35,556 bases of DNA from Candidatus Sumerlaeales bacterium (GTDB lineage: Bacteria > Sumerlaeota > Sumerlaeia > Sumerlaeales > Sumerlaeaceae). The position numbers were made by a program, and so were the translations under genes. Under the pieces are notes generated by a model. That model searched no databases. It worked only from the letters and a program-made list of their open reading frames with translations, and was not told the origin of the DNA. Where the stretch lies: contig JBBSQY010000036.1 in assembly GCA_038243585.1 (NCBI GenBank), positions 1 to 35,556 on the forward strand, given 5' to 3'. This document shows positions 6,569 through 24,993 of the stretch, piece after piece; positions within the stretch are counted from its first letter, which is position 1, and each line of letters opens with the position of its first letter.

Positions 6569-6720
6569 CTTCCCGCCGGATTGCGAATATTACCCAAAAA
6601 CGCGAAGTAGCCCTCCTTGGCCCTTGGGCCATTTGCAGGGGTAACTTGCGAAATTGATGTAATGCGACACTTCATTACAACAGATACGCATTGAAAATTA
6701 CAATACGAGGAGCAACCAAT

Positions 6721-7578
6721 TTGAGACGAATTATACAGTCAAAACCAGGATTGTCCATTGGGGTCAATTTGGCTTTGGCAATGCTGGCCCACTGTAAGCC
6801 TGGCTTTGCTGGCAGCGCTACAGAGGTAACAGCAAAAACGTCTTCGAGTGGACGCGACAAAAAAGTAGCGGCACAGCAGCTCGGTGAAGAGTATCTTGAA
6901 AAAGTCAGCTTTCGAGGTGCGGCCGCGGTGAATAACGCAAAAGCAATCTGGGGAAGCCTTGTTTTTGCAGCGGGATCGGAAGCGCGGAGTGGCACTCCTA
7001 TGAGCTACGAGGAAGTACGTCTATTTCTGCAGTCTTACAACGCAGGACCTTATGCATGTCTGAAATACAAAGGCACTGTTCCGTACAAAGAGACACGCAA
7101 CTACGTCCCAAAAATAATGAAGTATTATCAACGGAACATCAGCGATTCCCCTTACGATTCGATAATTGTAGAAAAAGCCACAAAATATGGCTTGGATCCT
7201 CAACTGATTCGGGCAATTATGAAAGCGGAATCAGGCTTCGATAAACGCATTGTGAGCCATGCGGGCGCACGCGGGTTAATGCAGGTCATGCCGTGCGTGT
7301 GGCAGGACGTTCAGAAGCGGTACCGTTTTAAATGGAATTATAATTCCGACGTGTTCGACCCGGAAAAAAACGTAGAAGTTGCCTGCGCTTATCTCGCATG
7401 GCTTCGCTACGATTTCCTACCTGGACACTTTCAGGAATTCCCAAAAAATCCAGAGGCTCCGGCAGTTGTAAAGCGTGACAAGCGACGCATGAAAAAAGAA
7501 CGTATCAGTGCACGAGAAGAAATTATGATCTCGCAAAAATCCGCTCAGGATAAGACAGTTACCGCCCCAGGGGCGTAA
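6721..7578 (+). CDS. Lytic transglycosylase (SLT/GH23-like) with circularly permuted motif order
   Basis: YNAGP and PYKETRNYV precede GLDPQLIRAIMKAESGF, GARGLMQVMP and DPEKNV..AYL. TTG at 6721 follows GAGGAG SD (ORF track starts at 6691); hydrophobic N-terminus. Confidence 0.85.
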   Translation: MRRIIQSKPGLSIGVNLALAMLAHCKPGFAGSATEVTAKTSSSGRDKKVAAQQLGEEYLEKVSFRGAAAVNNAKAIWGSLVFAAGSEARSGTPMSYEEVRLFLQSYNAGPYACLKYKGTVPYKETRNYVPKIMKYYQRNISDSPYDSIIVEKATKYGLDPQLIRAIMKAESGFDKRIVSHAGARGLMQVMPCVWQDVQKRYRFKWNYNSDVFDPEKNVEVACAYLAWLRYDFLPGHFQEFPKNPEAPAVVKRDKRRMKKERISAREEIMISQKSAQDKTVTAPGA

Positions 7579-9607
7579 TGCTCTTGAAATGGCGCACCGC
7601 TTTATCTGCGACCACCTCCGCTTGAAGAAGTCGAATGCGGTGATGCGTCGAAAGGCCCTGTAGCTCCATACCTGACAGCTTTTGCGGCAACGCGTTGGCA
7701 TAGCCGTGGAGATGATGATTCTCCACGGCACCCCAACGCTGCGGCTCACTTGCAGCGTATAACGTAAATGTCGGAACATCAAAGGCCATCGCCAGGTGTT
7801 TTGGGCCGGAGCAGCCACCAATAAAATACGAAGCAGACCGCACAAGAGCCATCATTTGGCCGGCAGTATCGCCAATCGTGCAGAGCATACCCGCAGAAAG
7901 TTTCACTTCTCGGACGGCTATATCACCAGCTTCCTTCCAGTTGAGCCCCCCCGTTATCACTATTGGCAGACCAATCTTCACGGCGATTTCTTTCAGAAAA
8001 GGGATCCATTGATCCAACGGCCATTCTTTGGATTCATGGCCAGCGCCAAATTGTACTAAAATGTATTCGCCTGTGATTCCCGCAGTAATTAGGGTTCTTT
8101 GCGCCCATTCTATATCTTCTTCGGCGACCGATGGGGGATGGGGTTTGACCGTCGGCCGTAGCGGCCAAAGCCTGAAGAGTCTTGCAAGATTTTCATGCTC
8201 ATGCAGTTCCATGTTTTTGTAAACAGTGTGGCGCGCGTACAGATAATCTCTGCGACCCGAAAAGCCCACGTCACAATTGAACGTAGTGCCTATTTGCGAC
8301 AGGTACGCTCTCCAAAGTCTGTAATCCCCGAAGGGGAAATATGGAATGATGGCCGCATCCACCGGTTCACCACCTCCCCGAACAAGCTTCGAAGCCACCG
8401 AGGTCGGCACCGCGTTTACGTTATCCCCGAGACCCTGCAAAAGCGCGGGGTATTTACAGGACACCAGAATGGTAGAGTTTTGAAATGATACAGCAAGTGT
8501 CTGGATGTGCCTCCGTAAAAGGACGGAGTCCCCAAGAAAGCATTCCGCTGATACAAAAATAGAACGAGGCGCCGACGGCGGAAAAATACCGCGATGCCGG
8601 AGTATGTTTCTCGAAAGAAACACTGCTTTTCCGGCGCGGATATTAGCCTGAAAAACCGCTGCCTTTGCAAGCTGTTTTACCTGTTCCCGTCTTCGCGGGC
8701 GAACCGTAACTGGGCTCTGCCATACGGCCATAAATTTTCCCCACTGCCGCTGCATCCACACAACGTCCGCCAACCTGTGCTGTGCGTCAAAAGGCCGCAG
8801 CGCCACCTTATCCGCCACAACGCCCGCAATATGCGCCAGGTCCCACGGAATAGCGGTTGCCGCGTCATAGTTGGGCCGGCGTAACCAGCTAGACACCCCA
8901 TCATTGCGGGCTCTCTGTTTGACATAGGTCCATGTCAACCTGTCGGAATGTACATGATGAGTGACAGCCTGTCTAAAATTGACCGATGCATCTGCCCCCA
9001 TGAGGCGTCGATCCATCCACCACTCCGCGTCCTCGCGACCGGTGGCATATAACTGACGAGCCTCTCGCCGAATAACATCAAACCGGTGCTCTGTCCAAAG
9101 GGCACCGTTTGCAGCCATATTACAGGTATCCGGATAATATCCCGCCACTCTCAAAACAGTTCCGGGCGGACTAAGACCAATGCACCAGTTAATTTCCGGA
9201 ACCCACCACTGCGGCACATCGCCATCGGCTATGGTGACACCGCCTGCGGCGTCGTGGTTTTGTAGGCCCCTCCGAATCTGATCAAGCCAGTTAGGAAAAG
9301 GATAGGCGTCATCGTCAATAAAAGCGACGGCATTTCCCGCCGCCAGGCTCAGAAGCTTGTTTCTGGCCGTGGCAAAATCAAAATGCTCCTGCTGAAAAGT
9401 ATGGTATCTGATCTGATCAGATTCCAATGCCGCAACCAATTGCTTTGTCACGTCAGACGATCCCGTATCCAGAACAAGAACCTGGTCAACCGGCCTTAAC
9501 TGCCTTTTCAACTCATCCAAAAGCGGTCGGAGCAGATGATCTCGGTTATAGGTTAGTATGCAAACGCAGACAGGAAGCCAAGCCGGTTCCTGGTTACCCT
9601 TTAACAT
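7559..9607 (-). CDS. GT2 plus GT9 (heptosyltransferase-like) fusion glycosyltransferase
   Basis: N-half: CILTYNR, AFIDDDA, REDAEW. C-half: FLGDSVL, HEHE, KEWPLDQW, SGPKHLAMAFDVPTFTLY, PQRWG. Confidence 0.85.
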   Translation of the reverse strand: MLKGNQEPAWLPVCVCILTYNRDHLLRPLLDELKRQLRPVDQVLVLDTGSSDVTKQLVAALESDQIRYHTFQQEHFDFATARNKLLSLAAGNAVAFIDDDAYPFPNWLDQIRRGLQNHDAAGGVTIADGDVPQWWVPEINWCIGLSPPGTVLRVAGYYPDTCNMAANGALWTEHRFDVIRREARQLYATGREDAEWWMDRRLMGADASVNFRQAVTHHVHSDRLTWTYVKQRARNDGVSSWLRRPNYDAATAIPWDLAHIAGVVADKVALRPFDAQHRLADVVWMQRQWGKFMAVWQSPVTVRPRRREQVKQLAKAAVFQANIRAGKAVFLSRNILRHRGIFPPSAPRSIFVSAECFLGDSVLLRRHIQTLAVSFQNSTILVSCKYPALLQGLGDNVNAVPTSVASKLVRGGGEPVDAAIIPYFPFGDYRLWRAYLSQIGTTFNCDVGFSGRRDYLYARHTVYKNMELHEHENLARLFRLWPLRPTVKPHPPSVAEEDIEWAQRTLITAGITGEYILVQFGAGHESKEWPLDQWIPFLKEIAVKIGLPIVITGGLNWKEAGDIAVREVKLSAGMLCTIGDTAGQMMALVRSASYFIGGCSGPKHLAMAFDVPTFTLYAASEPQRWGAVENHHLHGYANALPQKLSGMELQGLSTHHRIRLLQAEVVADKAVRHFKSITPLGR

Positions 9608-10545
9608 GGCTCTCCAAGCCCTTTAAACCGTTCAAAAACTTCTGCGTCCGAGAGTCGTTGACGCTGAAAACGAGCCTGTCGTTCCTTCAGAATCTGAGCG
9701 CGATGGACAAAAATATAGTGGAAAATAGCAAGACGCGATTTAAATCTCAAATTCTCGCCCTTTGCCACGAAGCCTGGCATGGCGCCCCACAAAGCCTGGC
9801 TTGCTTCGTAATCCGTAAGATTCATCGCCAGCATAAGCCAGCTGTTCCGCATGCGAATCTGGTTAATCCGCTCCTCTCCATGAGCTCTTATCATTGATCC
9901 CTGGCCAAGATGAGACCCCAGCGCCGTCGGGTCATAAAGATTACGATAGCCCGCCTTCAGTGCTTGGTACGAAATGTCGTAATCTTCCCAATAGCCAGGA
10001 GCAAAAAGCGGATGAAAACCGCCAAAATCCAAAAATTTCTCTCTTAGGACGGCACAAGACCCACCCTGCAAAAACATCGTCTCCGTTGTTTCCGCGTCGT
10101 CACTCCAGGTAAGGCGCAGTTTACCGTCCTCCATAAATCCGCGCATATTGAGATGGTTTGGTTCGCCGTTATCCCAGTCAACGGTCTTGCCCGAAACTCC
10201 AAAAATATCAGCCGCGTTATCAAAGTGCCGACAGAGATTTCCAATAAAACCGGGCCGGGCAATCAGGTCGTTGTTCACGAGTACGATAATTTTGCCCTGG
10301 GCCTGTTTTGCGCCTTCATTCACCATATGACCAAAACCCCGATTGGACTCGTGGGTAATCAGGCGAATGTCTGGAAATTGTTGATGCGTCTCCTGCGCGC
10401 TACCGTCAGTGCTGGCGTCATCCATCAGCAGGCACTCAAACGAATGACCATACTCGGCAGCGGATTGCAACACAGCGGCAACGCACCGTGTCAAATAAGC
10501 GCGCCCGTTCCAATTAGGGATGATGATAGAAAGCTTAATGGACAT
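9601..10545 (-). CDS. Glycosyltransferase family 2
   Basis: IIIPNWNG, DDASTDGS, NRGFG, LVNND, YWEDYDIS. Confidence 0.92.
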   Translation of the reverse strand: MSIKLSIIIPNWNGRAYLTRCVAAVLQSAAEYGHSFECLLMDDASTDGSAQETHQQFPDIRLITHESNRGFGHMVNEGAKQAQGKIIVLVNNDLIARPGFIGNLCRHFDNAADIFGVSGKTVDWDNGEPNHLNMRGFMEDGKLRLTWSDDAETTETMFLQGGSCAVLREKFLDFGGFHPLFAPGYWEDYDISYQALKAGYRNLYDPTALGSHLGQGSMIRAHGEERINQIRMRNSWLMLAMNLTDYEASQALWGAMPGFVAKGENLRFKSRLAIFHYIFVHRAQILKERQARFQRQRLSDAEVFERFKGLGEPC

Positions 10546-12700: not shown

Positions 12701-13993
12701 ATGAAAAAAGTTTCGTCCTCTCTTTTATGCCTCGGAATCCTAGTTCTGCTATTTTCGCTAAATGCTAGATCGGTTTCGGCGCAAAATACTTTTCAATCCA
12801 AGCGCCTGAACGCTCTTTTAGAACGGCGCGGGTGGATCCGTATAGGTCTTGTTGACTCTGCTGCTCACTTAGAGATAAGCCTGCCGTCCGGCGGCACGGT
12901 ACGGCACGCCGGTAGCACAGCATCCGTATGCGAACCTGGCGTAATAAAGCTGACGGCCTCAAACGGCGTCATCAGCCTCACACTCCCAGGCGTAACTGCG
13001 CCAACCGTCGCGTCAGACGTGACAATAGTCCCGACCGGAAAGCCATTTCAATACCAGGGTAGATCCTATCGCGGCAACGCACGAGTAACCGCCGGAAGCT
13101 CCCTGGCACTGGTCAATGAAGTCATGATAGACGACTGGCTTAAAGGAGTGCTCCCGGCAGAGATCGGCAGTGACTCACCTTTAGAAGCTTTAAAAGCTCA
13201 GGCGGTCACCGCAAGATCAGAAGCCATATTCCGCCTTCTCAAACCACCCCACGCCAGCGAGGGTTATGACTTCTGCACGGGCGTGCATTGTCAGGCGTAC
13301 AAGGGGATAGGCGAAGAAAACGCCGCCATTCAACAGGCCTGCGACGCCACTCTCGGTTATGTTCTAGTAGCGCAAGAAGATGTTGTGAACGCCGTCTATC
13401 ACAACGTATGCGGCGGTGTAACTGCAGGGGCAGAAGATGTTTGGGACAGTGAACCTCTACCAGGCATTATACCGGTTTTTGATACCCTTAAAGGGGGCAC
13501 TCCTGATCTATCCAGCGAAGCGGCCGTCGCGCTCTTTATCCAGGATTCCGGAGCCGATTCCTTTTGTTACTCCGGAAACCCCGGCTACGCAAACTACGCA
13601 AAAAAATACTTTCGCTGGTCGAAAACCATCTCCGCGACTGAGGCTGGCCGCATGGCCGGCGTTGGGACTTTAACAGACATTAAAGTAACAGAGCGACGCC
13701 CCAGCGGTCGAGTGCGTAAGCTTACTGTCGTCGGCACAGCCGGCACCAAAACGATCGAAAGAGAACTCCCTATTCGAAACGTTTTTGATCTCTGGAGCGG
13801 ACTTTTCGTCCTGCAGCTCGATCAAGCGGCAGGACCCCTGTCTTCCATAACATTTCTGGGCGCGGGAAACGGTCACGGAGTAGGACTATGCCAACACGGT
13901 GCCCGGGAAATCGCCCGCCGCGGTGGCACCTACGATCAAATATTGGGTCAGTATTACAGAGGAGCCAAACTCCGGCGCGTCTATCGCCCCTGA
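12701..13993 (+). CDS. SpoIID/LytB domain protein (secreted peptidoglycan lytic enzyme)
   Basis: Signal peptide, YRG, GVLPAEI..EALKAQAVTARS, HCQAYKG, GNGHGVGLCQHGA. Confidence 0.92.
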   Translation: MKKVSSSLLCLGILVLLFSLNARSVSAQNTFQSKRLNALLERRGWIRIGLVDSAAHLEISLPSGGTVRHAGSTASVCEPGVIKLTASNGVISLTLPGVTAPTVASDVTIVPTGKPFQYQGRSYRGNARVTAGSSLALVNEVMIDDWLKGVLPAEIGSDSPLEALKAQAVTARSEAIFRLLKPPHASEGYDFCTGVHCQAYKGIGEENAAIQQACDATLGYVLVAQEDVVNAVYHNVCGGVTAGAEDVWDSEPLPGIIPVFDTLKGGTPDLSSEAAVALFIQDSGADSFCYSGNPGYANYAKKYFRWSKTISATEAGRMAGVGTLTDIKVTERRPSGRVRKLTVVGTAGTKTIERELPIRNVFDLWSGLFVLQLDQAAGPLSSITFLGAGNGHGVGLCQHGAREIARRGGTYDQILGQYYRGAKLRRVYRP

Positions 13994-14019
13994 AAAACAT
14001 CAGCACCCGCCCAAATGAA

Positions 14020-14042
14020 GTAGCATAGGCGTCCCGCCTGTG
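14020..14042 (+). repeat. GTAG-type REP-like palindrome, copy 1
   Basis: GTAG-CATAGGCG-TCC-CGCCTGTG between convergent genes; near-identical to 18761-18783. Confidence 0.7.
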
Positions 14043-14073
14043 TATAAACTCCGCAATCGCTACAAGCTCTTCG

Positions 14074-14658
14074 TCAGAATCCCGAAGGCTTTTCCAGCTT
14101 TAAAAAATTACTCAAGATCGACTTCCCCTCACCGGTCAAAATGCTTTCCGGGTGAAACTGCACACCCCAGACCGGATTTGTTTTATGGCGCATCGCCATA
14201 ATTAGCCCATCCTCTGTTTCCGCCGTCACCTGCAAACAGTCCGGCAGCGAAGGCCGATCAACAATCAGCGAATGATACCGCGTGGCTTCAAACGGGTTCG
14301 AAAGCCCGGCAAACAACTCATCGCCATCCACATAACGAACAGGGCTCACCTTGCCATGCATCACATAAGGCGCGCGCACCACCCGCCCGCCATACGCCTG
14401 CCCGATTGCCTGGTGTCCTAGGCACACCCCGAGTATCGGAAAAGCCTCACCCAGCGAGGTGATAATATCCAGAGAAATGCCTGCTTCGTTAGGCGTACAA
14501 GGTCCCGGGCTAATAACGATCCTGTCCGGTGCCATCTTTAAAATTTCCGCCGTCGTTACCTGGTCGTTGCGCACAACCTCAAGCTCCGCTCCCAGCTCAC
14601 CCAGATACTGAGCCAGGTTATAAGTAAACGAGTCATAATTATCGATAATGAGAAGCAT
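14074..14658 (-). CDS. trpG: Anthranilate/aminodeoxychorismate synthase component II (glutamine amidotransferase)
   Basis: [37 protein letters not shown]; follows trpE. Confidence 0.93.
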
Positions 14659-14662
14659 TGGT

Positions 14663-16147
14663 CTAGTCCAGTCCGTATTCGGCTATTTCGATAGCGCGTA
14701 TCATGGCGCCGGCTTTGCTAATCGTTTCCCGGTATTCTGACACCGGATCTGAGTCCGCCACAATGCCGGCCCCTGCCTGCACATAAGCTTGGTTATCCTT
14801 AATCAGAATAGTGCGGATAGTGATACAACTGTCCAGGTTTCCGTTAAATCCAAAATACCCCACGCTTCCCGCATAGGTTCCGCGATTCAGCTGCTCAATT
14901 TCATCGATAATTTGCATCGCTCGTATTTTCGGGGCTCCGCTAACCGTCCCTGCCGGAAACGCCGCGCGGAACACATCAAACGCATCAATGCCCGGCTTCA
15001 TCTTTCCACGAACATTAGAAACAATGTGCATCACGTGCGAATACCGCTCTACCGACATCAGATTGTCTACTTGAACACTGCCATATTCACACACCCGGCC
15101 GCAATCATTTCGCCCAAGGTCGACCAGCATGATATGCTCTGCCCGTTCTTTCGGGTCAGCCAGGAGTTCCTTTTCCAAAGCATTATCTTCCTCAACCGAA
15201 GCGCCCCGCTTACGAGTGCCCGCGATCGGACGAACCTGCACCACGTCCCCCGTCAGGCGCACAAGAATCTCCGGGCTGGCCCCAACCAGCCGCATATCCT
15301 TCAGTTTCAGATAAAACATATAAGGTGAAGGGTTAACCGATCGCAGCGCCCGATAAACTTCAAATGGTTCACAGGTGACAGGCACATTAAACCGCTGCGA
15401 AATCACCACCTGGAAAACGTCACCAGCGGAAATATACTCTTTGCATTTCTCCACGGCAGACGTAAATTCATCCTGCGTAAAGTTCGACTGGACCTCACTG
15501 CGCCCCGTACTGACAGTACGCTCCGCCGTCGTCACCGGCCGCAACAGCTTCTGATGCAGAAGATTGATCTTTTTCAGCGCCTCATCATAAAGCGCGTCAG
15601 GATCAACATCCCCCTGCAAATGACAGTTCACAACCAGCTTCATCCGGTGACGAAGATGGTCAAAGATCACAAGGGATTCCGTAATCACGAAACAGATATC
15701 CGGCAGATTCAGATCATCATTCTGCCCGCCGCCCACCGGCTCGAAGTTTTTAACCTCATCGTAAGAGACATAGCCGACCGCCCCACCCGAAAAAGGAGGG
15801 AGTTCGGGATCTTCCACAAACTTGTAAAGCTTCAGGATTTCTCTTAGACGATCGAGAGGCGCAGAATCCGTAAAAGATTCCTTCTTGCCTCCCGCGTAAG
15901 ATATCTCCACATCATGACGTTTGCTCTTAAACGTAACGACCGGGTGGAGGCCAATGAAGCTATATCGGGCCCATTTCTCGCCGCCCTCCACGCTCTCCAG
16001 CAGGTAGGAGCATTCAGAATCTTCCAGTTTTTTATACGCTGAAACCGGAGTATCCATATCTGCAACGATTTCCCGATAAACAGGGATTAGGTTTCCGCGC
16101 TTAGCGCGCTCTTTAAACTCGATACGGCTTGGGTATACGGATGACAT
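14663..16147 (-). CDS. trpE: Anthranilate synthase component I
   Basis: [59 protein letters not shown]. Confidence 0.93.
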
Positions 16148-16247
16148 TTCGTTTGATTAACCTGTCCAATGATAACAAAGGGTGGAAGATAAAGTACTAC
16201 GGGAATCAAAAGGCAGGTTAAAGACCGGTTTACAAGGGTGAAACAAA

Positions 16248-16655
16248 TCAGCCCTGTTTATTACTGTAAACCTTATCAGCGTCAAAAACCCGCTCGCCGT
16301 CCTCACGCCATCGTTCCCCATCAGCCAGACGATAAAAACACGACCGGTGTCCGGTGTGACATGCGCCGCCCGTCTGCTCTACAGAAACAAGCAAGGCGTC
16401 ACCATCACAATCCAGCCGCACACTCTTGACCATCTGCACGTTCCCGCTGGATTCCCCTTTGATCCACAACTTATTACGGGATCGGCTCCAATAACACGCA
16501 CGACCCTCACTCAGGGTTTTGCCCAGCGCTTCCTGATTCATCCACGCAAACATAAGCACTTCGCCGGACACGCAATCCTGCACAATAGCGCCCACAAGTC
16601 CTTTGTCGTCGAACTTGACCTGTTCCAGTAGAGTCTCTGTAATAGCGGTCGTCAT
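16248..16655 (-). CDS. hisI: Phosphoribosyl-AMP cyclohydrolase
   Basis: [32 protein letters not shown]. Confidence 0.96.
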
Positions 16656-16809
16656 GATAATCTGATCAATAATAGTGCAGCAGCCAACTTTTCATTTTTC
16701 ATCCAGCAAAAAAAATGTCTATACACAAGCATACAGAAGAATCTGCCGTTTGAGTTGCAATAGTTCGCCAGTCAGGTAGCAACACTTTTGAAGCAGCGTC
16801 GAGGGTAAG

Positions 16810-18075
16810 ATGAACGTCGGAGTTATTGGGCTGGGATACGTTGGCCTGCCACTGCTCGTGGAATTAGGCAAAGCCGGATTTAAGGCCGTAGGAATAGACA
16901 TCGATATGTCCAAGGTAGACTCAATCAACCGCGGCATCAGCTACATCGACGACGTTGATAAAGACGATCTTGAACAGCTTGTCGCTGCCGGCACCATATC
17001 TGCCACCACCGACTGGGACGCAATCACCAAACTGGACGCCATAAGCATCTGCGTCCCCACCCCCCTCCGCAAAACCAAAGATCCTGACATCTCTTTTATT
17101 GTAAACACCGTCGAACAAATCGCCCCAAGACTCCGCAAGGGTCACATCATCATTTTGGAAAGCACCACCTACCCCGGCACAACCGAAGAACTCCTCCTGC
17201 CCGACTTCGAAAAATCCGGTCTCAAAGTCGGCCAGGATTTTTTCCTGGCCTTTTCGCCGGAAAGAGTCGACCCGGGCAATACGAAATTCCATACAAAAAA
17301 CACCCCCAAGATCGTAGGCGGGTGCACCGCCGAATGCGGTAAAAAAGCCGTCGAATATTACTCCCGGATTTTTGACGAAGTCGTGCCCGTATCCAGCGCC
17401 CGCTGCGCTGAAATGGTCAAACTACTCGAAAACACCTTTCGCAGCGTCAACATCGGCCTCGTCAATGAAGTCGCTGTCATGTGCGATAAGCTCGGCCTGA
17501 ACGTATGGGAGGTCATAGACGCTGCCGCCACAAAACCCTTCGGATTTATGAAATTCTACCCCGGCCCCGGCCTCGGCGGTCACTGTATTCCAATTGATCC
17601 CCATTACCTGTCATGGAAACTCAAAGCCCTGAACTACAACGCCCGCTTCATCGAACTCGCCAGCGAGATCAACAGCCACATGCCCGAGTTCGTAGTAGAT
17701 AAAGTCATCCACGCGTTAAACGACGCCGAAAAATCCGTAAAAGGCAGCCACATCCTGATGATCGGGGTAGCCTATAAAGCCGACGTAAACGACGTCCGCG
17801 AAAGTCCTGCTCTCGACATCATAAGCCTTCTCCAGAATCTCGGCGCAAAAGTCGAATACCACGATCCCCACGTCCCGGAACTTCATGAGCACGGCCTCGA
17901 TATGAAATGCGTAACAATGGATAACCAACGCCTGTCCGCCGCCGACTGCGTCATCATAACCACCCAGCACGCAAAAATCGATTTCAAGGAAATCGGCGCG
18001 GCTTCAAAACTGATAATCGATACCAGAAACGCCATGAAGAACGTTCCCACTAACGCCCAGGTCGTTCTACTGTAA
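16810..18075 (+). CDS. Nucleotide-sugar dehydrogenase (UDP-GlcNAc/ManNAc dehydrogenase family)
   Basis: GLGYVGLP, ICVPTP, ESTTYPGTT, FSPERVDPGN, KLLENTFR, GGHCIPIDP, DVRESP. Confidence 0.95.
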   Translation: MNVGVIGLGYVGLPLLVELGKAGFKAVGIDIDMSKVDSINRGISYIDDVDKDDLEQLVAAGTISATTDWDAITKLDAISICVPTPLRKTKDPDISFIVNTVEQIAPRLRKGHIIILESTTYPGTTEELLLPDFEKSGLKVGQDFFLAFSPERVDPGNTKFHTKNTPKIVGGCTAECGKKAVEYYSRIFDEVVPVSSARCAEMVKLLENTFRSVNIGLVNEVAVMCDKLGLNVWEVIDAAATKPFGFMKFYPGPGLGGHCIPIDPHYLSWKLKALNYNARFIELASEINSHMPEFVVDKVIHALNDAEKSVKGSHILMIGVAYKADVNDVRESPALDIISLLQNLGAKVEYHDPHVPELHEHGLDMKCVTMDNQRLSAADCVIITTQHAKIDFKEIGAASKLIIDTRNAMKNVPTNAQVVLL

Positions 18076-18326: not shown

Positions 18327-18719
18327 ATGAATAACGAAACCCGTAAACTCATGAAACTGCTCCACCTTGGAGCCGACGAAATCTACCACGTCTTTTGTCT
18401 GGCCCTGTGCATGGCCTACCTGGATGGACGTGTCTCCGACGAAGAAGGGGAAATTCTAACCCGCATCGGCTTCGGTCTCGGCCTGACACCAGAAGATATA
18501 TCCGCCTTGGGCGAAAACGCCAAATCCGCAGTAGCCGAAACCAGCCCCGGCGACGTAATCGCCTTCTCCATCGCCAGCTTGAAGGCAAAACTGGATAAGG
18601 AACAACTCCAGGGAGTGCGGCAGATATTGCAGTTTGTTGCCGTCAGCGATGACGCCATAGATTCTTCTGAACAGGACCTCCTGTCTCTGCTGGACGAAAT
18701 TTGGGATTCCGCTGATTAG
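18327..18719 (+). CDS. TerB-like family protein
   Basis: Duplicated A-x-x-D-G/D-x-V/I-x-x-x-E motif (MAYLDGRVSDEE; VAVSDDAIDSSE) in a 130-aa acidic helical protein. Confidence 0.7.
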   Translation: MNNETRKLMKLLHLGADEIYHVFCLALCMAYLDGRVSDEEGEILTRIGFGLGLTPEDISALGENAKSAVAETSPGDVIAFSIASLKAKLDKEQLQGVRQILQFVAVSDDAIDSSEQDLLSLLDEIWDSAD

Positions 18720-18722
18720 GCA

Positions 18723-18741
18723 GGCGTCTCCTGGGGACGCC
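18723..18741. terminator. GC-rich hairpin just after the TerB-like stop codon (possible terminator or stabiliser)
   Basis: GGCGTCTC-CTG-GGGACGCC; no U tract. Confidence 0.4.
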
Positions 18742-18760
18742 GGCGTAAACCGGCAAAGAA

Positions 18761-18783
18761 GTAGCATAGGCGTCTCGCCTACG
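18761..18783 (+). repeat. GTAG-type REP-like palindrome, copy 2
   Basis: GTAG-CATAGGCG-TCT-CGCCTACG; shares GAAGTAGCATAGGCGTC with the 14017 copy. Confidence 0.7.
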
Positions 18784-18888
18784 TGAGTGCAAGGGTGCTT
18801 AGCGGCGTAAAAGGGAATTTCAAAGAGCGTTGCGGAGACGATAATTTATACAGTGTATGAATAGGGAGCGACGTGCGGTCTGGGTTTC

Positions 18889-18913
18889 GGACGGCTCGGC
18901 GAGCCATCCCTAC
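18889..18913 (-). repeat. GTAG-type REP-like palindrome, second sequence class
   Basis: Minus strand reads GTAG-GGATGGCTC-GCC-GAGCCGTCC. Confidence 0.6.
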
Positions 18914-18924
18914 CCGAAACTGGT

Positions 18925-20703
18925 TTAGAATCTGCGGGTTCTGTTTTTTATGGATATGATGGGGCCTATTGGTTTTTCGCTGGCGCGGATCATTTCTATG
19001 CAGCTGGCGAGGGCGTCGAGGCCGTCGTCGTGGTTTGAGCGGCTTCCGTTGTATTCGTCGGCCTGGATGTAGAATTCCTGTTTGAGGTCTTGCTGGAAAA
19101 GGATACTTCCGGCGATGATATGGGGCTCGAGCAGGCTGATGCGGCTGTGTTTGCTGTGGTGGTTGTTGTGTTTTTCAATGGGGAGATGCCAGTGGTCTCC
19201 GGCGGTTTTCATGCGGGTTTGTTCATCTCGGATAAAGGTGCCGAGGGTTTCCTGGAAGCCGTTGCATTCGAAGCCAAACTTTTCGTATTTGTATTTCTGG
19301 TGGAGGGCGAAGACCTGGGTGACTTGTTTCATGGGAGAGGCTTTTTCCATCCAGACGTCCATGACGTAGAGGGTGTTGTCGGGGGCTTTGCCTACGGTGA
19401 CGATGGCGGCGTAGTCGCCGTCGCGGGTGGTGGCTTTTCCCATAGCGGGGTCGAGGAAGCCGTAGTATTTTAGCTGGTCTTTGTGGTGGCGGGGTGTGTT
19501 GGAATTACGAATTACTAATTCCGAATTACTAATGGTGGTGTCGCTGCGCGACGATGATTTGGATGACTGGCAGGAATGTTTATCCCACGATTGGCTGTCT
19601 GGATTTTCTTCCAGGGTGAGGCCTCTGGTTATGGGTTGGATGTGGCCGTCGGGGCTGATGAAGCGGGACCACATGCTTGTGTCAAAGATCTGGTCACCGT
19701 CTTTTATGGGGGAGTTCATTTTCTCTTTGAAGAAGGCGGAGCGGCCGAGGGTGAGGAGCTTTTCCTGGAGTTTGACGTAGGGTTCTTTTGAGGGCCAGAA
19801 GACTTCTACGCCTTCCATCATGGGAGTTTGGTTTTCGGCGAAGTAGGCTTCGGCGGTTTCGACGTTGTCGGGGTCGGAGCGGTCGGTGAAGAGGCGCTGC
19901 CAGGTGCGCCAGAGATCGGGGCGGCTGTCCCAGGCGGTGATGGATTTGTAGAGCTGGGATTTGTAGCCGGGGCGGTTGAGGAGGGTGCTGAGGAGGCTGT
20001 CGGTGTGGAGGATCGTGCCGACGATAGTGATGTGGGTGTAGCTGTCGCCGAGGTTCTCTACGGTTTCGTCGTACCATTGGAGTAGTTTAATTCGAAGGTA
20101 TGACGTGGTGGAATGCCGGGACTGCTCGACGTCGTCGAGGATGATGCGGGTGGGGCGGAATTCCCCGTGGCTGACGCCGCGCATTTCGCTGGCGGCACTG
20201 TAGGCTTCGATTCGGCAGTTGCCGATTTCGATGTAGCGGGTGTTGGACTTAAATTTGGGGACGCGGCCGCCGAAGAAGGTGTCGCGGATTTTGGGATTTG
20301 TGCGGAGTTCGCGGGCAATGGTGGCGAGGCGGTTTTTCGCCTGCTGCATAGTGCCGCTGATGATGACCTGGTGGCGCTCGCGGCCGGAGAGGATGTCGAT
20401 GATGGGAAACAGAAGCGGGTGGATGGTGGACTTGGCTGCGCCGCGGGGCGCAGCGACGGCGAGGCGACGTCCGGTGCGGACGGGCAGCGGGTGCGCGTGC
20501 TGCTTCAGGTATTGCTCAAAGCTGAACAGGTGCATATCGTTAAAGTCGTTGCGGCAGTGATGGCCGAGGAAATCGCGGAAGAACTGGGCAGGGTCGGACG
20601 TGAGCCGCGCGATCGTGTCGGCGGAAATGGTGGGTTCGGTTGGTGCGGGTGCGGTAGTGGCCGAAGTGTCGGAAGCAGCTGCGGAGTGGTTTTTATCGTT
20701 CAT
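18925..20703 (-). CDS. Phage-type terminase large subunit (orphan)
   Basis: Walker A APRGAAKST, RG..RPTRIILDDVE Walker B, VGT coupling motif, RNase H-like nuclease acidic motifs FLDPA, DYAAIV, FECNGFQ, HDDGLDALA. Confidence 0.9.
   Translation of the reverse strand: MNDKNHSAAASDTSATTAPAPTEPTISADTIARLTSDPAQFFRDFLGHHCRNDFNDMHLFSFEQYLKQHAHPLPVRTGRRLAVAAPRGAAKSTIHPLLFPIIDILSGRERHQVIISGTMQQAKNRLATIARELRTNPKIRDTFFGGRVPKFKSNTRYIEIGNCRIEAYSAASEMRGVSHGEFRPTRIILDDVEQSRHSTTSYLRIKLLQWYDETVENLGDSYTHITIVGTILHTDSLLSTLLNRPGYKSQLYKSITAWDSRPDLWRTWQRLFTDRSDPDNVETAEAYFAENQTPMMEGVEVFWPSKEPYVKLQEKLLTLGRSAFFKEKMNSPIKDGDQIFDTSMWSRFISPDGHIQPITRGLTLEENPDSQSWDKHSCQSSKSSSRSDTTISNSELVIRNSNTPRHHKDQLKYYGFLDPAMGKATTRDGDYAAIVTVGKAPDNTLYVMDVWMEKASPMKQVTQVFALHQKYKYEKFGFECNGFQETLGTFIRDEQTRMKTAGDHWHLPIEKHNNHHSKHSRISLLEPHIIAGSILFQQDLKQEFYIQADEYNGSRSNHDDGLDALASCIEMIRASEKPIGPIISIKNRTRRF
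19502..19570. repeat. Heptamer plus hairpin element, copy A (in frame within terminase gene)
   Basis: GAATTAC GAATTAC TAATTCC GAATTAC TAAT G GTGGT GTCGC-TGC-GCGAC GATGATTTGGATG ACTGG. Confidence 0.75.
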
Positions 20704-20766
20704 AGTGATGCGGTTATTAGCGAACGATTATGGGCTGGGTATTCCCGCACGGGTACTTAAGTGGAA

Positions 20767-20821
20767 AAATTACGAATTACAAATTGTGGTGCGGCTTCGC
20801 CGCGATGATTGGATGGGCTGG
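20767..20821. repeat. Heptamer plus hairpin element, copy B (upstream of terminase gene)
   Basis: AAATTAC GAATTAC AAAT T GTGGT GCGGC-TTC-GCCGC GATGATTGGATG GGCTGG. Confidence 0.75.
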
Positions 20822-20919
20822 TATATCTCGCACCTTCGGCGCTTATAAAACATTAATATACAATGGCTTATTGTAGCGAAGGGCTATGGTGCACACTGTG
20901 GGCTATGGCAGAAACTGTG

Positions 20920-20952
20920 CAAGCGGCCCAGAGCTACGCTCTGGGCCGCTTG
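20920..20952. terminator. Perfect 15-bp inverted repeat downstream of the ABC-F gene (probable terminator or palindromic repeat)
   Basis: CAAGCGGCCCAGAGC-TAC-GCTCTGGGCCGCTTG, about 20 nt past the stop codon; weak U tract. Confidence 0.6.
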
Positions 20953-20971
20953 GAAATATTTCACAGGGTTG

Positions 20972-22951
20972 TCAGGTTTTCAGGGCTTCGACTTCTACGC
21001 CTACATCTTCCCAGGATTTTACGAGTTGGGGTAGCTTGGCTTCAAGGGCGTGGCCTTCGGCGCTGATTTCCGGGGTGACCAGGTGTTTTGTGTAGGCTTC
21101 GGGATCGGCTTGCAGGGCGTGGATTTCGGCGAGGCGGGCTTCTGTTTTTTCTATTTGTTCTTCGAGGTCGCGTAGTTTTGCGAATAGCTGGGTTCTGGCC
21201 TGGGCGCGTTCTTTTTTGCCGAGCTGATTTAGTTTTGGCCCTTTAGGTTTTGGTGGTGCGGCGGGTTTCGCTGCTATGGCGTCGGCCTGCTGGGATTTCT
21301 CTTTTGGCATTACGGTGATGTTGCGTCCGCGGAGATCGTCTTCGTCCCGGCCGCCGGCTTCCCTGGTGGCGAGGTATTCGGAGTAGTTGCCGGAGTGGGA
21401 TTTGACTTTGTGGTCGGCGACTTCGACGATGCGGTTTGCGACGGCGTCGATGAAGTAGCGGTCATGGCTGATCATGATGATTGTGCCGGGGAAGTCGTGG
21501 AGGGCTTCCTGGAGAACTTCGCGGGTGGAGATGTCCAGATGGTTGGTGGGCTCATCTAGGAGGAGGAGGTTGCCTCTGCGGAGCATCATCCTGGCCATGG
21601 CGAGGCGGCTTTTTTCTCCGCCGCTGAGGACACGGACGGGCTTAAAGACTTCGTCTCCGGTGAACAGGAAGCAGCCGAGGAGGGAGCGGATCTGTTCATC
21701 GGTCTGGTTGGCACCGGGAACGCGGGCGTTGCTGAGGACGTCGGCGTCAAGGTCAAGGGTGTCGACGCGGTTCTGGCTGAAGTACTCGGAGAGGACCTTC
21801 GAGTGGATGGCAACTTCGCCGGTGTGATCAAGGATGCCGGCACAAATTTTCAAAAGGGTTGATTTGCCGGCTCCGTTGCGTCCGACGAGGGCGGCTTTGT
21901 CTCCGGGTTCGAAGCGAAGATTGACGTCGGAGAAGACGTGGTTGTCTCCGTAGGACTTTGAAACGTCGCGGAGTTCGAGGACGTTTCGGCCGACGGGAGC
22001 AGGGGGTGGAATGCGGAGTTTAACTTTTCGGGCGCTCTGGGGCAGCTCAATGCGCTCAATCTTGTCGACCATTTTGATGCGGCTCTGGACCAGGGTGGCT
22101 TTTGAGGCTTTGGACCGGAAGCGGTCGATGAAGAGCTGATGATGGGCGAGTTCGTCTTGCTGGTTCTGGTAGCGGCGCTGGAGCATTACTTCGTATTCTT
22201 CACGTTCTTTGAGGAACGCGCTGTAGTTTACGGCGTAGGTGTCGAGGCGTTTTTCGTGAACCCATGCGGTGCTTTTTGTGACGCGATCAAGGAAGTAGCG
22301 ATCATGGCTGACGACTACGAGGGCACCGTTGAAGGTGCCGAGAAACTTTTCAAGCCAGTCAATGCTTTCGAGATCCAGATGGTTGGTGGGTTCATCGAGC
22401 ATGAGCACGTCGGGAGCTTCGAGCAGGAGGCGGCCGATGTGGGCGCGCATCTGCCATCCGCCGCTGAACAGGCTGAGGGGCTGCTCCTGTTGCTCTTCGG
22501 TGAAACCCAGCCCAGTCATAATTTTGCGGGCGTCTGACTCGGCTTCGCCGGGGTTGTGATGATGGACGTGCTTTTCGAGCTGGTGGATGCGTTCGTATAG
22601 TTCTTCCAGCTCATCTTCCGGTGTGGTGGCGATGGCATGGTATGAACGGTCGAGTTCGGCAGCGTCCTGTTCTTCTTTTTCGTAAGCTTTTAAAACTTCC
22701 TGCAGGACGGTAGTTTCGCCGACGGCGGAATGAATTTCCTGACGGAGGAATCCGAGGCGGCAGTTTTTGCTGATTAAAACTTTTCCGCTCTGGGGTTCGA
22801 CTTCGTCTACGATCATGCGGAGGAGGGTGGTTTTCCCTGTGCCGTTATCGCCTACCAGGCCAATGCGTTCGCCTGGTCTGATGTGCCAGTTTAGGTCACT
22901 GTATAGATCTTTGTCTCCGACAAAGTGGTTAATATCAATAAAACGAATCAT
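20972..22951 (-). CDS. ABC-F family ATPase (ribosome-associated, YheS/Uup-like)
   Basis: Two NBDs (GDNGTGKT/FSGGW/LDEPTNHLD and GRNGAGKS/LSGGE/LDEPTNHLD), inter-domain linker FIDRFRSKASKA, C-terminal coiled coil, no TM segments. Confidence 0.95.
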   Translation of the reverse strand: MIRFIDINHFVGDKDLYSDLNWHIRPGERIGLVGDNGTGKTTLLRMIVDEVEPQSGKVLISKNCRLGFLRQEIHSAVGETTVLQEVLKAYEKEEQDAAELDRSYHAIATTPEDELEELYERIHQLEKHVHHHNPGEAESDARKIMTGLGFTEEQQEQPLSLFSGGWQMRAHIGRLLLEAPDVLMLDEPTNHLDLESIDWLEKFLGTFNGALVVVSHDRYFLDRVTKSTAWVHEKRLDTYAVNYSAFLKEREEYEVMLQRRYQNQQDELAHHQLFIDRFRSKASKATLVQSRIKMVDKIERIELPQSARKVKLRIPPPAPVGRNVLELRDVSKSYGDNHVFSDVNLRFEPGDKAALVGRNGAGKSTLLKICAGILDHTGEVAIHSKVLSEYFSQNRVDTLDLDADVLSNARVPGANQTDEQIRSLLGCFLFTGDEVFKPVRVLSGGEKSRLAMARMMLRRGNLLLLDEPTNHLDISTREVLQEALHDFPGTIIMISHDRYFIDAVANRIVEVADHKVKSHSGNYSEYLATREAGGRDEDDLRGRNITVMPKEKSQQADAIAAKPAAPPKPKGPKLNQLGKKERAQARTQLFAKLRDLEEQIEKTEARLAEIHALQADPEAYTKHLVTPEISAEGHALEAKLPQLVKSWEDVGVEVEALKT

Positions 22952-23555: not shown

Positions 23556-24920
23556 TCACGCGCCCAATGGCGCGCGTACTTTATGCCAGTGTTCTGTAAG
23601 AGCATTGGTGTTTTCAGAATCCGGATGTCTATTGCTATCAGCTGCTTTAACGGGTTTTGCAATCCAGTTTCGCAGTTCACTACCCCACTTGGCGCCATTG
23701 TAGTTTTCCAGTATGTAGTCACGGCATCGGGTGCCTCTATTTTTAGCGACCTGACTGCCTTCGGATGCGTCTATAAGTGTGCGGGTCAGACTTTCGGCGC
23801 TTCCCATTTCGAAGGGTGCCAACATTTCCGCCTGTGCAAGATCAACGCTTAGCTCAGTGACAACCGTGCTGGCTACGGGGATGCCGGCGGCGAGAAAATT
23901 GATAAGCCGAGTGCGGCTACCGAGTTCTGCTTCGTAGGTGTATCTGTCTATGGAGATGCCAAGATCGCATTGGGCGTAGAGGGCTTGCATTGCGGCCAGG
24001 GGCTGCCAGTCCATCAATGTGACCGCGCCTTCGACCTCCGCCTCTTTTATACCGGTGAGGAATTGGCCGTAGCTGATTTCGTTGTATCCGGCGATTTTGC
24101 CTCCGACAACAAGCAGACGCATGTTTGGGTTACTTTTTAAGGCATCTGTAATGCCTCGAGTCAGGGTAGGGACATCCATCCAAGTGTTAAAGCTGCCGCA
24201 CCACATAATTGTAAACTGCTCGGGGGGTTTTGACGCGGGAATCGAGGATAATTCTGTATCGGCTTCGAACACGGCATAGGGAAGATAATGGCATAATGAG
24301 GCTGACGCCGTAAATTGGTTAAGGCGTCCGGCGCAGCCAAGCTGCCCTTGCAGGGCGTGGCGCTGGCGGTGGGAAAGACCGTAGAAGCGATCGCCTTCCA
24401 GCAGAGCGTCGAGCAGAAGTTTCCATACATGAACAAGCCGGGTTTCGGCGGCTGCCGGTCCGTCTTCCGCAGTGAGTTCCATTTGGCTTTGCATTTCACA
24501 GATAGGATCGCCAAATACGTCAATCCACAGCGGGAGTGAGCGGAGCCTGGCAAAGCCGGCGGCTGTGGAATAAGGTTGTACGGAGCCGGTGGCGATTACG
24601 GCTCTTATTTCCGGGGGGAGTTGGTGTATGGAGGGTTGATCTGTTCCGAGATTTCTAAATTCTTCGTAGGGGAGTGGTCGGTATTCCACTTGAATCTTAT
24701 GTCCCTGGGAGCTGACAAGGGCTCGCGGAGTTGAAGCTGAGTTATCTGATCGTGGAACTTCATCCAGGCCAAAGATAAGAATACTTTCGCTGAGGGCGCC
24801 CGCCTGGACAAGGCCGTCGGCGACTGTGCGCACGATCTGCCATGTTCGGCTGCCGGGTGCGGTCACAGCATATTCTGATTCGGTGGGCATGGGGCCATTG
24901 CCAAAAATTATTACGCTCAT
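23556..24920 (-). CDS. GT-B fold glycosyltransferase (GT4-like)
   Basis: WCGSFNTWMD, LLVVGG, YAQCDLGI, ELGSRTRLINFLAAGIPVAST. ATG at 24920 has a GGGAG SD (ORF track starts at 24935). Confidence 0.75.
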   Translation of the reverse strand: MSVIIFGNGPMPTESEYAVTAPGSRTWQIVRTVADGLVQAGALSESILIFGLDEVPRSDNSASTPRALVSSQGHKIQVEYRPLPYEEFRNLGTDQPSIHQLPPEIRAVIATGSVQPYSTAAGFARLRSLPLWIDVFGDPICEMQSQMELTAEDGPAAAETRLVHVWKLLLDALLEGDRFYGLSHRQRHALQGQLGCAGRLNQFTASASLCHYLPYAVFEADTELSSIPASKPPEQFTIMWCGSFNTWMDVPTLTRGITDALKSNPNMRLLVVGGKIAGYNEISYGQFLTGIKEAEVEGAVTLMDWQPLAAMQALYAQCDLGISIDRYTYEAELGSRTRLINFLAAGIPVASTVVTELSVDLAQAEMLAPFEMGSAESLTRTLIDASEGSQVAKNRGTRCRDYILENYNGAKWGSELRNWIAKPVKAADSNRHPDSENTNALTEHWHKVRAPLGA

Positions 24921-24993
24921 GCTATCTCCCTTCAAAAACCTATATGGAGTGTAAAGGCTAAAGCTTTAAACCTGCACGTAAATTCTTGTTAGT

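Follow-up and report, generated by a model that had tools for sequence, protein, structure and literature searches.

The 35,556-nucleotide contig JBBSQY010000036.1 of a Candidatus Sumerlaeota genome (G000; the whole contig is hereafter called the window) carries on its minus strand an open reading frame (ORF) that, by its sequence and modelled fold, is an intact large terminase (TerL). We consider it probable, though well short of certain, that this protein is the packaging motor of an ancient, domesticated, Mu-derived capsid system resembling a gene transfer agent (GTA), which is inherited throughout the class and whose genes are no longer contiguous. The TerL ORF starts with ATG and runs through 592 codons without an internal stop. 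Its product was matched in PHROGs to phrog_38, 'terminase large subunit', over residues 23–582 (E = 3.9e-76), and three other TerL families matched parts of it. In NCBIfam, the TerL nuclease-domain model TIGR01630 scored 42.7, barely above its cut-off of 41.65, and the T7-type TerL model termin_lrg_T7 scored 67.5, under its cut-off of 150. No Pfam family matched at E ≤ 0.01, and phmmer against the PDB sequences retrieved no TerL, its sole hits being to the P-loops of ABC transporters (E ≥ 0.026). The gene and its parts were placed as follows, A1 being the alignment of the window TerL with 62 relatives (63 sequences):

18925..20703, minus strand: TerL gene, paralog 'alpha', 592 aa, intact (ORF, phrog_38, TerL fold)
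19630..20622, minus strand: ATPase domain, approximately residues 28–358 (A1 columns; model confidence 82–98 over most of it)
20428–20448, minus strand: Walker A, PRGAAKS, residues 86–92 (A1)
20125–20136, minus strand: Walker B and catalytic glutamate, D190, D191 and E193 (A1)
18949..19491, minus strand: RNase H-like nuclease domain, approximately residues 405–585, with D418, E479, D560 and D563 (A1, Foldseek, TIGR01630, phrog_5573)

All 19 invariant columns of A1 are retained by the window protein, among them P86, R87, K91, D190, D191, T230, D418, E479, K518, R521, D560 and D563, and so is the nearly invariant E193. The Walker A motif follows the pattern PRGxAKS typical of the family, with alanine replacing the classic glycine before the lysine; since A90 is nearly invariant in A1, this alanine is a family trait. 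An AlphaFold2 model (predicted local distance difference test, pLDDT, 87.2; predicted template modelling score, pTM, 0.76) contains a disordered linker at residues 361–396 (pLDDT < 50). Its top matches among PDB structures are all TerLs, led by PhiV-1 (8dgc_E, 4.9e-19) and followed by HK97, T4 gp17, D6E and Sf6, the matches to these five covering the full-length fold (E 4.9e-19 to 1e-8). Using Foldseek, the nuclease part was also matched to the nuclease domains of human cytomegalovirus (HCMV), P22, SPP1 and G20c. The ATPase motifs, the acidic residues of an RNase H-like nuclease and the two-domain fold are all present, and the open frame, the phrog_38 match, the invariant columns and the fold together bear out a preliminary description of the window, made from its letters alone, which had recognised an intact 592-aa TerL with complete ATPase and nuclease motifs. 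Named relatives of the protein belong to Candidatus Sumerlaeota/BRC1, and the wider family comprises 4070 cluster representatives at E ≤ 0.001, or 463 at E ≤ 1e-30.

The same description had called the gene an orphan, which holds within the window but not in the genome. None of the window's 25 other long ORFs encodes a portal, capsid, tail protein or integrase; 24 of them match cellular Pfam families and one has no match. Pfam and ORF scans agree here with the preliminary description, also as to the TerB and ABC-F neighbours. Elsewhere in G000, a four-gene head cassette lacking TerL lies at 6496–10532 of the 14-kb contig C67:

C67:6496–8010: Mu-type portal (PF06074, E = 1.2e-91 and 4.7e-92; phrog_113, 4.1e-93)
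C67:8075–8938: head maturation protease (phrog_976, 2.1e-39)
C67:8757–9428: scaffold/cement protein (phrog_673, 2.4e-13; Phage_cement_2, 2.7e-6)
C67:9594–10532: major head protein (phrog_1005, 3.9e-76)

PF04860 (Phage_portal) has no match in G000. The cassette is flanked on C67 by pseudopilin-like genes, unmatched genes, a gene for a DUF2254 membrane protein and an IS200-like transposase gene; the flanks contain no phage genes, and C67 carries no TerL. The genome-wide search for dispersed partners that had been proposed thus recovered portal and capsid genes, while no small terminase (TerS) was recognised. In all 12 portal loci fetched from relatives, the same four head genes occur in the same order, and their flanking genes are not shared.

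TerL and the portal co-occur across the class. We surveyed 41 genomes from 15 families, G000 included, and found TerL in 34 and the portal in 33 of them: both genes in 31, neither in five, TerL only in three and the portal only in two. The genomes with one of the two genes are drafts of 81–94% completeness. The co-occurrence is significant (Fisher p = 0.0014), a value that is overstated because the genomes are related and not independent. The TerL tree (36 rows, with one short fragment left out and the prophage outgroup set aside for the label count) carries 13 family labels, which require the minimum of 12 changes; shuffled labels required 23.1 on average, and none of 200 shuffles gave a value as low. 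This comparison with taxonomy, called for in the preliminary description, turned out in favour of vertical descent. Likewise, the seven labels of the portal tree (17 genomes) require the minimum of six changes. Pairwise identities of TerL and portal are correlated (r = 0.86, 136 pairs), with means of 41% for TerL versus 51% for the portal. That TerL both occurs and diverges in step with the head cassette speaks for a joint function.

Selection was assessed between G000 and the same-genus genome G002. The ratio of nonsynonymous to synonymous substitution (dN/dS) was lowest for the portal (0.11), followed by the major head protein (0.15), the protease (0.20) and TerL (0.28); these values are rough since synonymous sites are near saturation. 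When the comparisons among TerL paralogs described below are included, TerL values span 0.06–0.39, the purifying selection that the first description had asked about. TerL and the head genes are vertically inherited and under purifying selection. Three outcomes had been named in advance as contradicting domestication; TerL proved to be present in relatives, its dN/dS did not approach 1, and its nearest homologues were not found in intact prophages at this site.

The two loci are physically separate. TerL and portal lie 133 kb apart in the complete genome G007; the complete genome G021 has TerL at 5.64 Mb but its portal and adaptor at 0.15 and 0.46 Mb, respectively; in G020, TerL and portal are separated by 9 kb and lie on opposite strands. 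Among the neighbours of 12 TerL loci from 11 relatives, none of 83 ORFs matched phage structural Pfam families at E ≤ 1e-8. Instead, these loci adjoin glycine-cleavage genes, frr-uppS-cdsA, ribosomal protein genes, recD2 or nusA, different in each genome. Integrase, replication, transposition and lysogeny genes were found neither beside the relatives' TerL loci nor beside the C67 cassette, the IS200-like transposase next to the latter aside. A small terminase or portal beside TerL, as in phage genomes, was found neither in the window, nor beside the other copies, nor at the 12 relatives' loci. As in a GTA, the gene set is dispersed, at distances of at least 133 kb in two complete genomes, and no replication or integration genes accompany it at the loci scanned. 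An internal control shows what a prophage looks like in the same data: at G013:C26:107879–110439, a second portal immediately adjoins a distant second TerL (26% identity), with a second adaptor at 115143–115568, and this TerL–portal pair probably belongs to a true Mu-like prophage.

Both proteins also point to the same group of phages. In a comparison with 50,697 phage records, the nearest phage TerLs, 26–29% identical, were those of Pseudomonas phages H70, LESphi4 and PaMx73, Haemophilus phage SuMu, Mannheimia phage 3927AP2 and Mushuvirus, which we take to be Mu-like transposable phages. The nearest phages of the portal (Mushuvirus, Pseudomonas and Ralstonia phages; 27–31% identity) form the same set, and in phage FP_Mushu the two genes are a pair about 0.8 kb apart (13744–15069 and 15865–17049). 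The major head protein is closest to a different set, Arthrobacter and Vibrio phages (31–33% identity). A scan of IMG/VR for TerL relatives confirmed no locus. The shared nearest phages suggest a common origin of TerL and portal.

Taken together, the cassette, the co-occurrence, the co-divergence and the purifying selection favour the first of three readings offered in the preliminary description, a domesticated terminase that forms part of a dispersed GTA-like system. Under this model, a host signal would switch on the TerL locus and the head cassette, and the C67 cassette would build procapsids. TerL, combining an ATPase with a headful nuclease, would then dock on the portal, cut DNA and pump it in. 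Because no small terminase is recognisable in the family, packaging would probably not be sequence-specific, and cellular DNA would be taken, as in gene transfer agents. In addition, TerL with a promoter of about 220 nt has multiplied in this genus to at least five dispersed copies and changes place between species. The joint working of the two loci, non-selective packaging and the release of particles are predictions of the model.

The multiplication is visible in G000 itself. Besides the window copy, the genome contains six further TerL fragments, all at contig ends: four 3' fragments on C27, C65, C4 and C51, and two 5' fragments on C29 and C34. Of the 24 ORFs flanking them, 21 match cellular Pfam families, three have no match and none is a phage gene, and the flanks differ from fragment to fragment. 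The four 3' fragments are 94–96% identical to one another in protein, the two 5' fragments 92%, and we refer to this group as 'beta'. The window copy, 'alpha', shares 68–70% identity with the beta fragments and 51% with the short 5' fragment on C34. Fragment groups and window copy together imply at least five TerL genes. Among the beta fragments, dN/dS is 0.06–0.10 at dS of 0.17–0.56 (0.22–0.39 between alpha and beta); the copies are therefore not fresh, and the protein has been kept. Homology between copies extends from about 220 nt upstream of the ATG to the stop codon, with sharp borders. An inverted-repeat search and the homology borders revealed no terminal inverted repeats at the ends of this unit, no target duplication is recognisable at the window copy, which is the sole complete one, and the unit carries no integrase or transposase gene.

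The unit has also changed place. In G002, the ABC-F gene and the TerB ortholog (90% identity) are 87 nt apart and TerL is missing from the gap, so residence at the window locus is recent. This contradicts the long residence that had been suggested on the basis of composition (the G+C content of the TerL gene, 0.55–0.57, is similar to the 0.58 of the ABC-F gene), and the proposed check of synteny likewise ended negatively, the position of TerL not being kept within the genus. Exact element borders were unobtainable by aligning the filled site with the empty G002 site, as coding DNA alone aligns there (about 79% identity). The G002 TerL closest to the window copy (support 97) lies between a gene for a 234-aa protein and recD2, beside rplM-rpsI. 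In G000, an abortive-infection gene (Abi_2, 3e-54) and a Y1 transposase gene take up this slot (C4:36867–38794) instead, which makes it a variable islet. IS200/RAYT-like Y1 transposases were seen both in this slot and adjoining the head cassette. At least three TerL copies occur in G002 and two in G008; most surveyed genomes have one locus. Between G000 and G002, the synonymous difference (pS) of TerL is 0.53, versus 0.62–0.84 for five other genes, which hints at exchange after the species split, although this is one rough measure. Contigs at least 88% similar to TerL were also found in three other soil/sediment runs in which its flanks match nothing and depth is not readable as copy number. 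A single joint in the run contigs ('skips 1281') was set aside because it falls on a repeated heptad motif. The multiplication and relocation of TerL are real.

These features raise the question of whether the roughly 2-kb unit of promoter and ORF is a selfish mobile gene that copies or moves itself inside and across related genomes and whose link to the cassette is historical only. The five or more copies in G000, whose fragments end contigs amid different cellular genes, the sharp borders, the empty window site in G002 with its closest TerL in another slot, the several copies in G002 and G008, the lower pS and the contigs without matching flanks all fit such an element. The unit nevertheless lacks terminal inverted repeats, a recognisable target duplication and an integrase or transposase. 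TerL nucleases are DNA-cutting enzymes for which strand joining is not known. Moreover, most genomes have a single locus, taxonomy and the family-level trees agree completely, the divergence of TerL parallels that of the portal, and copies at dS of 0.17–0.56 with the protein kept are unlike a recent burst of insertion sequences. We therefore regard a purely selfish gene as unlikely.

The variable islet also bears on a role in phage conflict, in which TerL paralogs would act against phages, for instance by cleaving or wrongly packaging DNA from incoming phages with related heads, and would have no part in a host particle. The slot holding TerL in G002 is occupied by Abi_2 in its sister species, the TerL family is expanded and evolves faster than the portal (41% versus 51% mean identity), and its copies sit in different genomic contexts. 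On the other hand, PADLOC returned no families for TerL, TerB or the neighbouring 459-aa ORF, TerL co-occurs and co-diverges with the head cassette, and no sensor or effector partner is conserved beside TerL in the window's family. We judge this role distinctly improbable as the whole explanation. Both the selfish gene and the phage conflict are live, either as rivals of the GTA-like reading or as additions to it.

The DNA upstream of TerL belongs to the duplicated unit and contains a compact control region:

20715..20805, minus strand: control region of TerL (sequence; module shared with the C29 and C34 copies)
20791–20803, minus strand: hairpin GCGGC-GAA-GCCGC (sequence)
20767–20785, minus strand: GTAATTN heptads (sequence)
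20741–20753, minus strand: core CCCGTGCGGGAAT (sequence)
20715–20720, minus strand: CTAATA box, 20 nt beyond the core (sequence)
19503..19570, minus strand: in-frame insert within the interdomain linker of TerL, resembling the promoter-proximal hairpin and GTAATTN heptads (repeats D1/D2, blastn, pLDDT)

The hairpin arms co-vary between copies (GCGGC/GCCGC versus GTCGC/GCGAC). On C67, the same core precedes the portal gene by about 60 nt (approximately C67:6420–6440), so that the TerL and portal loci of G000 both carry CGTGCGGGAAT, about 20 nt and a CTAAT-like box. It also precedes TerL and the portal operon in G002, G008 and several other families, G002 sharing an exact 22-mer. In its general form, the module reads TAAG-N2-3-CCCGTGCGGGAAT, about 20 nt, and a CTAAT-like box, and it precedes many genes, some of them belonging to families of short ORFs rich in Lys, Thr and Pro; its upstream half in relatives consists of TAAGGGNY direct repeats. 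A pattern scan upstream of TerL detected no sigma-70 consensus. We read the core as a type of host promoter, perhaps one used by an alternative sigma factor or bound by a regulator; it fits host-controlled expression and no more. A private regulon defined by the core was considered and dropped because the core precedes diverse genes. The insert at 19503–19570 shares the direct repeats D1/D2 with 20768–20821, matches the motifs of the control region and has blastn matches to C29, C34 and C8. On C8, an unrelated 236-aa ORF (G000:C8:2370–3080) is preceded by a TerL-type upstream module.

Several findings weigh against a GTA-like system, the first concerning the delivery apparatus. A gene for a head-tail adaptor (phrog_195, E 1e-21 to 1e-31; PF07030, Phage_Mu_Gp36, 3e-25) comes next after the major head gene in eight of 13 portal loci. 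Beyond it, several loci of other families encode a 200-aa protein without a match and two large proteins with weak matches to tail proteins (1.2e-7 and 2.9e-5), one of them conserved at the N-terminus and variable at the C-terminus. The adaptor is present in 24 of the 41 genomes, but it was found in none of the three genomes of the window's genus, none of the three of genus g2 and not in the complete G007. Hidden Markov models (HMMs) of the adaptor and of the cassette proteins 'B' and 'D' retrieved nothing from G000, and neither did tblastn with the tail-like proteins of other families. Hence, of the tail or delivery apparatus and lysis genes that a GTA would need, the adaptor, 'B', 'D' and the tail-like proteins were not found in G000, although its completeness of 89.7% makes such absences weak. 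DNA delivery to other cells is therefore doubtful in this genus, and the particle may be tailless. In addition, no small terminase was recognised in the window's family. A conserved ORF of about 115 aa that overlaps the TerL start (11 loci by BLAST clustering, 15 of 30 by HMM, all outside the window's family) has an acidic tail, the motif LKRIQ-ARR and no Pfam match, and it could be a small terminase (examples are L017:1164–1490 and L031:10713–11048); G000 has none. At least five TerL genes for one head cassette exceed the needs of a simple GTA. The promoter core has about 35 sites in G000 and 20 in G002 (versus none in a reversed control), before diverse genes. Finally, in at least five of the 34 genomes (G021, G027, G030, G031 and G033), the reading frame of the TerL match shifts inside the gene. 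Four of these five loci have the shift in the variable linker that joins the ATPase part to the nuclease part, and G030 has its breaks within the ATPase part and immediately beyond it; a complete genome is among the five. Such changes could reflect a split gene, a programmed shift or decay.

The frame changes, together with the Mu-like character of the closest phages, the adaptor and tail-like genes not found in the genus and the IS200-like transposase adjoining the cassette, would also suit functionless, decaying leftovers of Mu-like prophages. This explanation is nearly excluded by dN/dS of 0.06–0.39, by the retention of every invariant catalytic residue and by the presence of both genes in 31 of 41 genomes from 15 families with taxonomy-congruent trees. 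Furthermore, the four head genes are intact and ordered in 12 of 12 loci, and no replication, transposition or lysogeny genes lie alongside.

A further possibility, fairly unlikely in our estimation, combines several of these elements: the class would keep a Mu-derived capsid machine from whose head genes the TerL gene has escaped, moving and multiplying independently, and some genera would have lost the adaptor and tail but kept head and motor. If true, this would mean either tailless, DNA-filled capsids with a non-classical use or a terminase gene that spreads via the particles it fills.

Two other sets of genes were noted in G000 and its relatives. A lipoprotein, 'C', adjoins the cassette in four relatives but lies among housekeeping genes in G000, and it was dropped as a member of the set. 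At G000:C2:98000–118000 lies a separate island in which neither a portal nor a terminase was seen and whose products include an HK97-type major head protein (PF05065, 6.4e-11; phrog_10, 4.5e-27), a protein resembling primases/helicases (phrog_2373, 2.7e-47) and an integrase (phrog_1, 9e-22). It could represent a satellite or the remains of a prophage that has nothing to do with the Mu-type set.

Within the window, TerL is accompanied by genes for TerB (PF05099, 9.6e-10), an ABC-F protein, a cupin and UDP-glucose dehydrogenase. Neither Pfam (E ≤ 1e-5) nor PADLOC returned a family for the 459-aa ORF at 23556–24935 (minus strand), which is conserved beside the cupin and ABC-F genes in the same-genus genome G001 (65% identity). 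Three short elements surround the TerL unit:

18884..18920, minus strand: hairpin repeat of 37 nt resembling repetitive extragenic palindromic (REP) elements, directly after the TerL stop (sequence, blastn)
18765..18783, minus strand: terminator-like hairpin 3' of TerL (pattern scan; consensus match only)
20920..20952, minus strand: perfect 15-nt inverted repeat I2 after the ABC-F stop, likely the ABC-F terminator (inverted-repeat search)

The first consists of GTTTCGG...CCGAAAC around GGGTAGGGATGGCTCGCCGAGCCGTCC and has more than 30 blastn matches on other G000 contigs; it is dispersed in the genome, looks REP-type and lies outside the TerL unit. I2 delimits, on the upstream side, the space occupied by this unit. 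An Rfam search of 18650–21050 gave nothing close to any gathering score.

Among known systems, one of the closest is RcGTA of the Alphaproteobacteria, in which TerL lies within the main head-tail cluster. The Sumerlaeota set, a putative GTA, differs from it in its Mu-like heads (Portal_Mu, Mu Gp36), its separated TerL, the multiple TerL copies within a genus and its phylum; no tail genes were found in G000. The 'genome' of RcGTA is described as multilocus (PMC5026251, PMC9662315). The two systems share phage-derived structural and packaging genes that are inherited vertically over a large taxon, evolve under purifying selection and occupy more than one locus, as well as the lack of replication and integration genes and, presumably, expression under host-type control.

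Very few gene transfer agents are known, mostly from Alphaproteobacteria, according to a report on FpGTA of Faecalibacterium prausnitzii (PMC12946183). The same report describes a TerS candidate, TerL, portal and capsid gene in one 10.5-kb operon, a second locus about 125 kb away, proteins resembling those of short-tailed phages, and particles with approximately 9 kb of host DNA and no visible tails (PMC12946183). FpGTA and the Sumerlaeota set are alike in being candidate GTAs found beyond the Alphaproteobacteria, in comprising genes for TerL, portal, scaffold and major capsid protein, and in occupying more than one locus. They differ in that the Sumerlaeota TerL stands apart from the head genes (by at least 133 kb in two complete genomes and 9 kb in G020).

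Mu-like phages such as Mushuvirus mushu, Pseudomonas phage H70 and Haemophilus phage SuMu are the source of the closest phage relatives of TerL and portal and have Portal_Mu and Mu Gp36 in common with the set. Their TerL and portal genes lie close together in a genome of about 37 kb with transposase, tail and lysis genes, whereas the Sumerlaeota TerL and head loci sit among cellular genes, without tail or lysis genes in G000. With insertion sequences, the TerL unit shares its size of about 2 kb, multiple copies that break assemblies, sharp borders and empty sites in relatives. Unlike them, it has no inverted repeats or target duplication, encodes a packaging ATPase-nuclease rather than a known transposase and exists in copies that are old (dS 0.17–0.56) and conserved.

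Our literature searches found nothing joining Sumerlaeota with gene transfer agents and nothing relevant on orphan or domesticated terminases or terminase-like transposases; the listed items pairing Sumerlaeota with terminase concerned other topics, judged by title and abstract. A head-and-motor set inherited throughout a class of an uncultured soil and sediment phylum would, if the GTA-like reading is true, represent an independent domestication of a Mu-like head. Portal and major head proteins, together with read-length peaks, could then serve as markers for such particles in metagenomic data from virus-like particles. A multiplied, relocating TerL combined with the loss of adaptor and tail falls outside the standard picture of gene transfer agents and could show how parts of a domesticated virus gain independence. 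The GTA-like kind is itself known from the systems compared here; the novelty lies in the host phylum, in the descent from Mu-like phages, in a TerL that is both detached and amplified, and in the genera without an adaptor.

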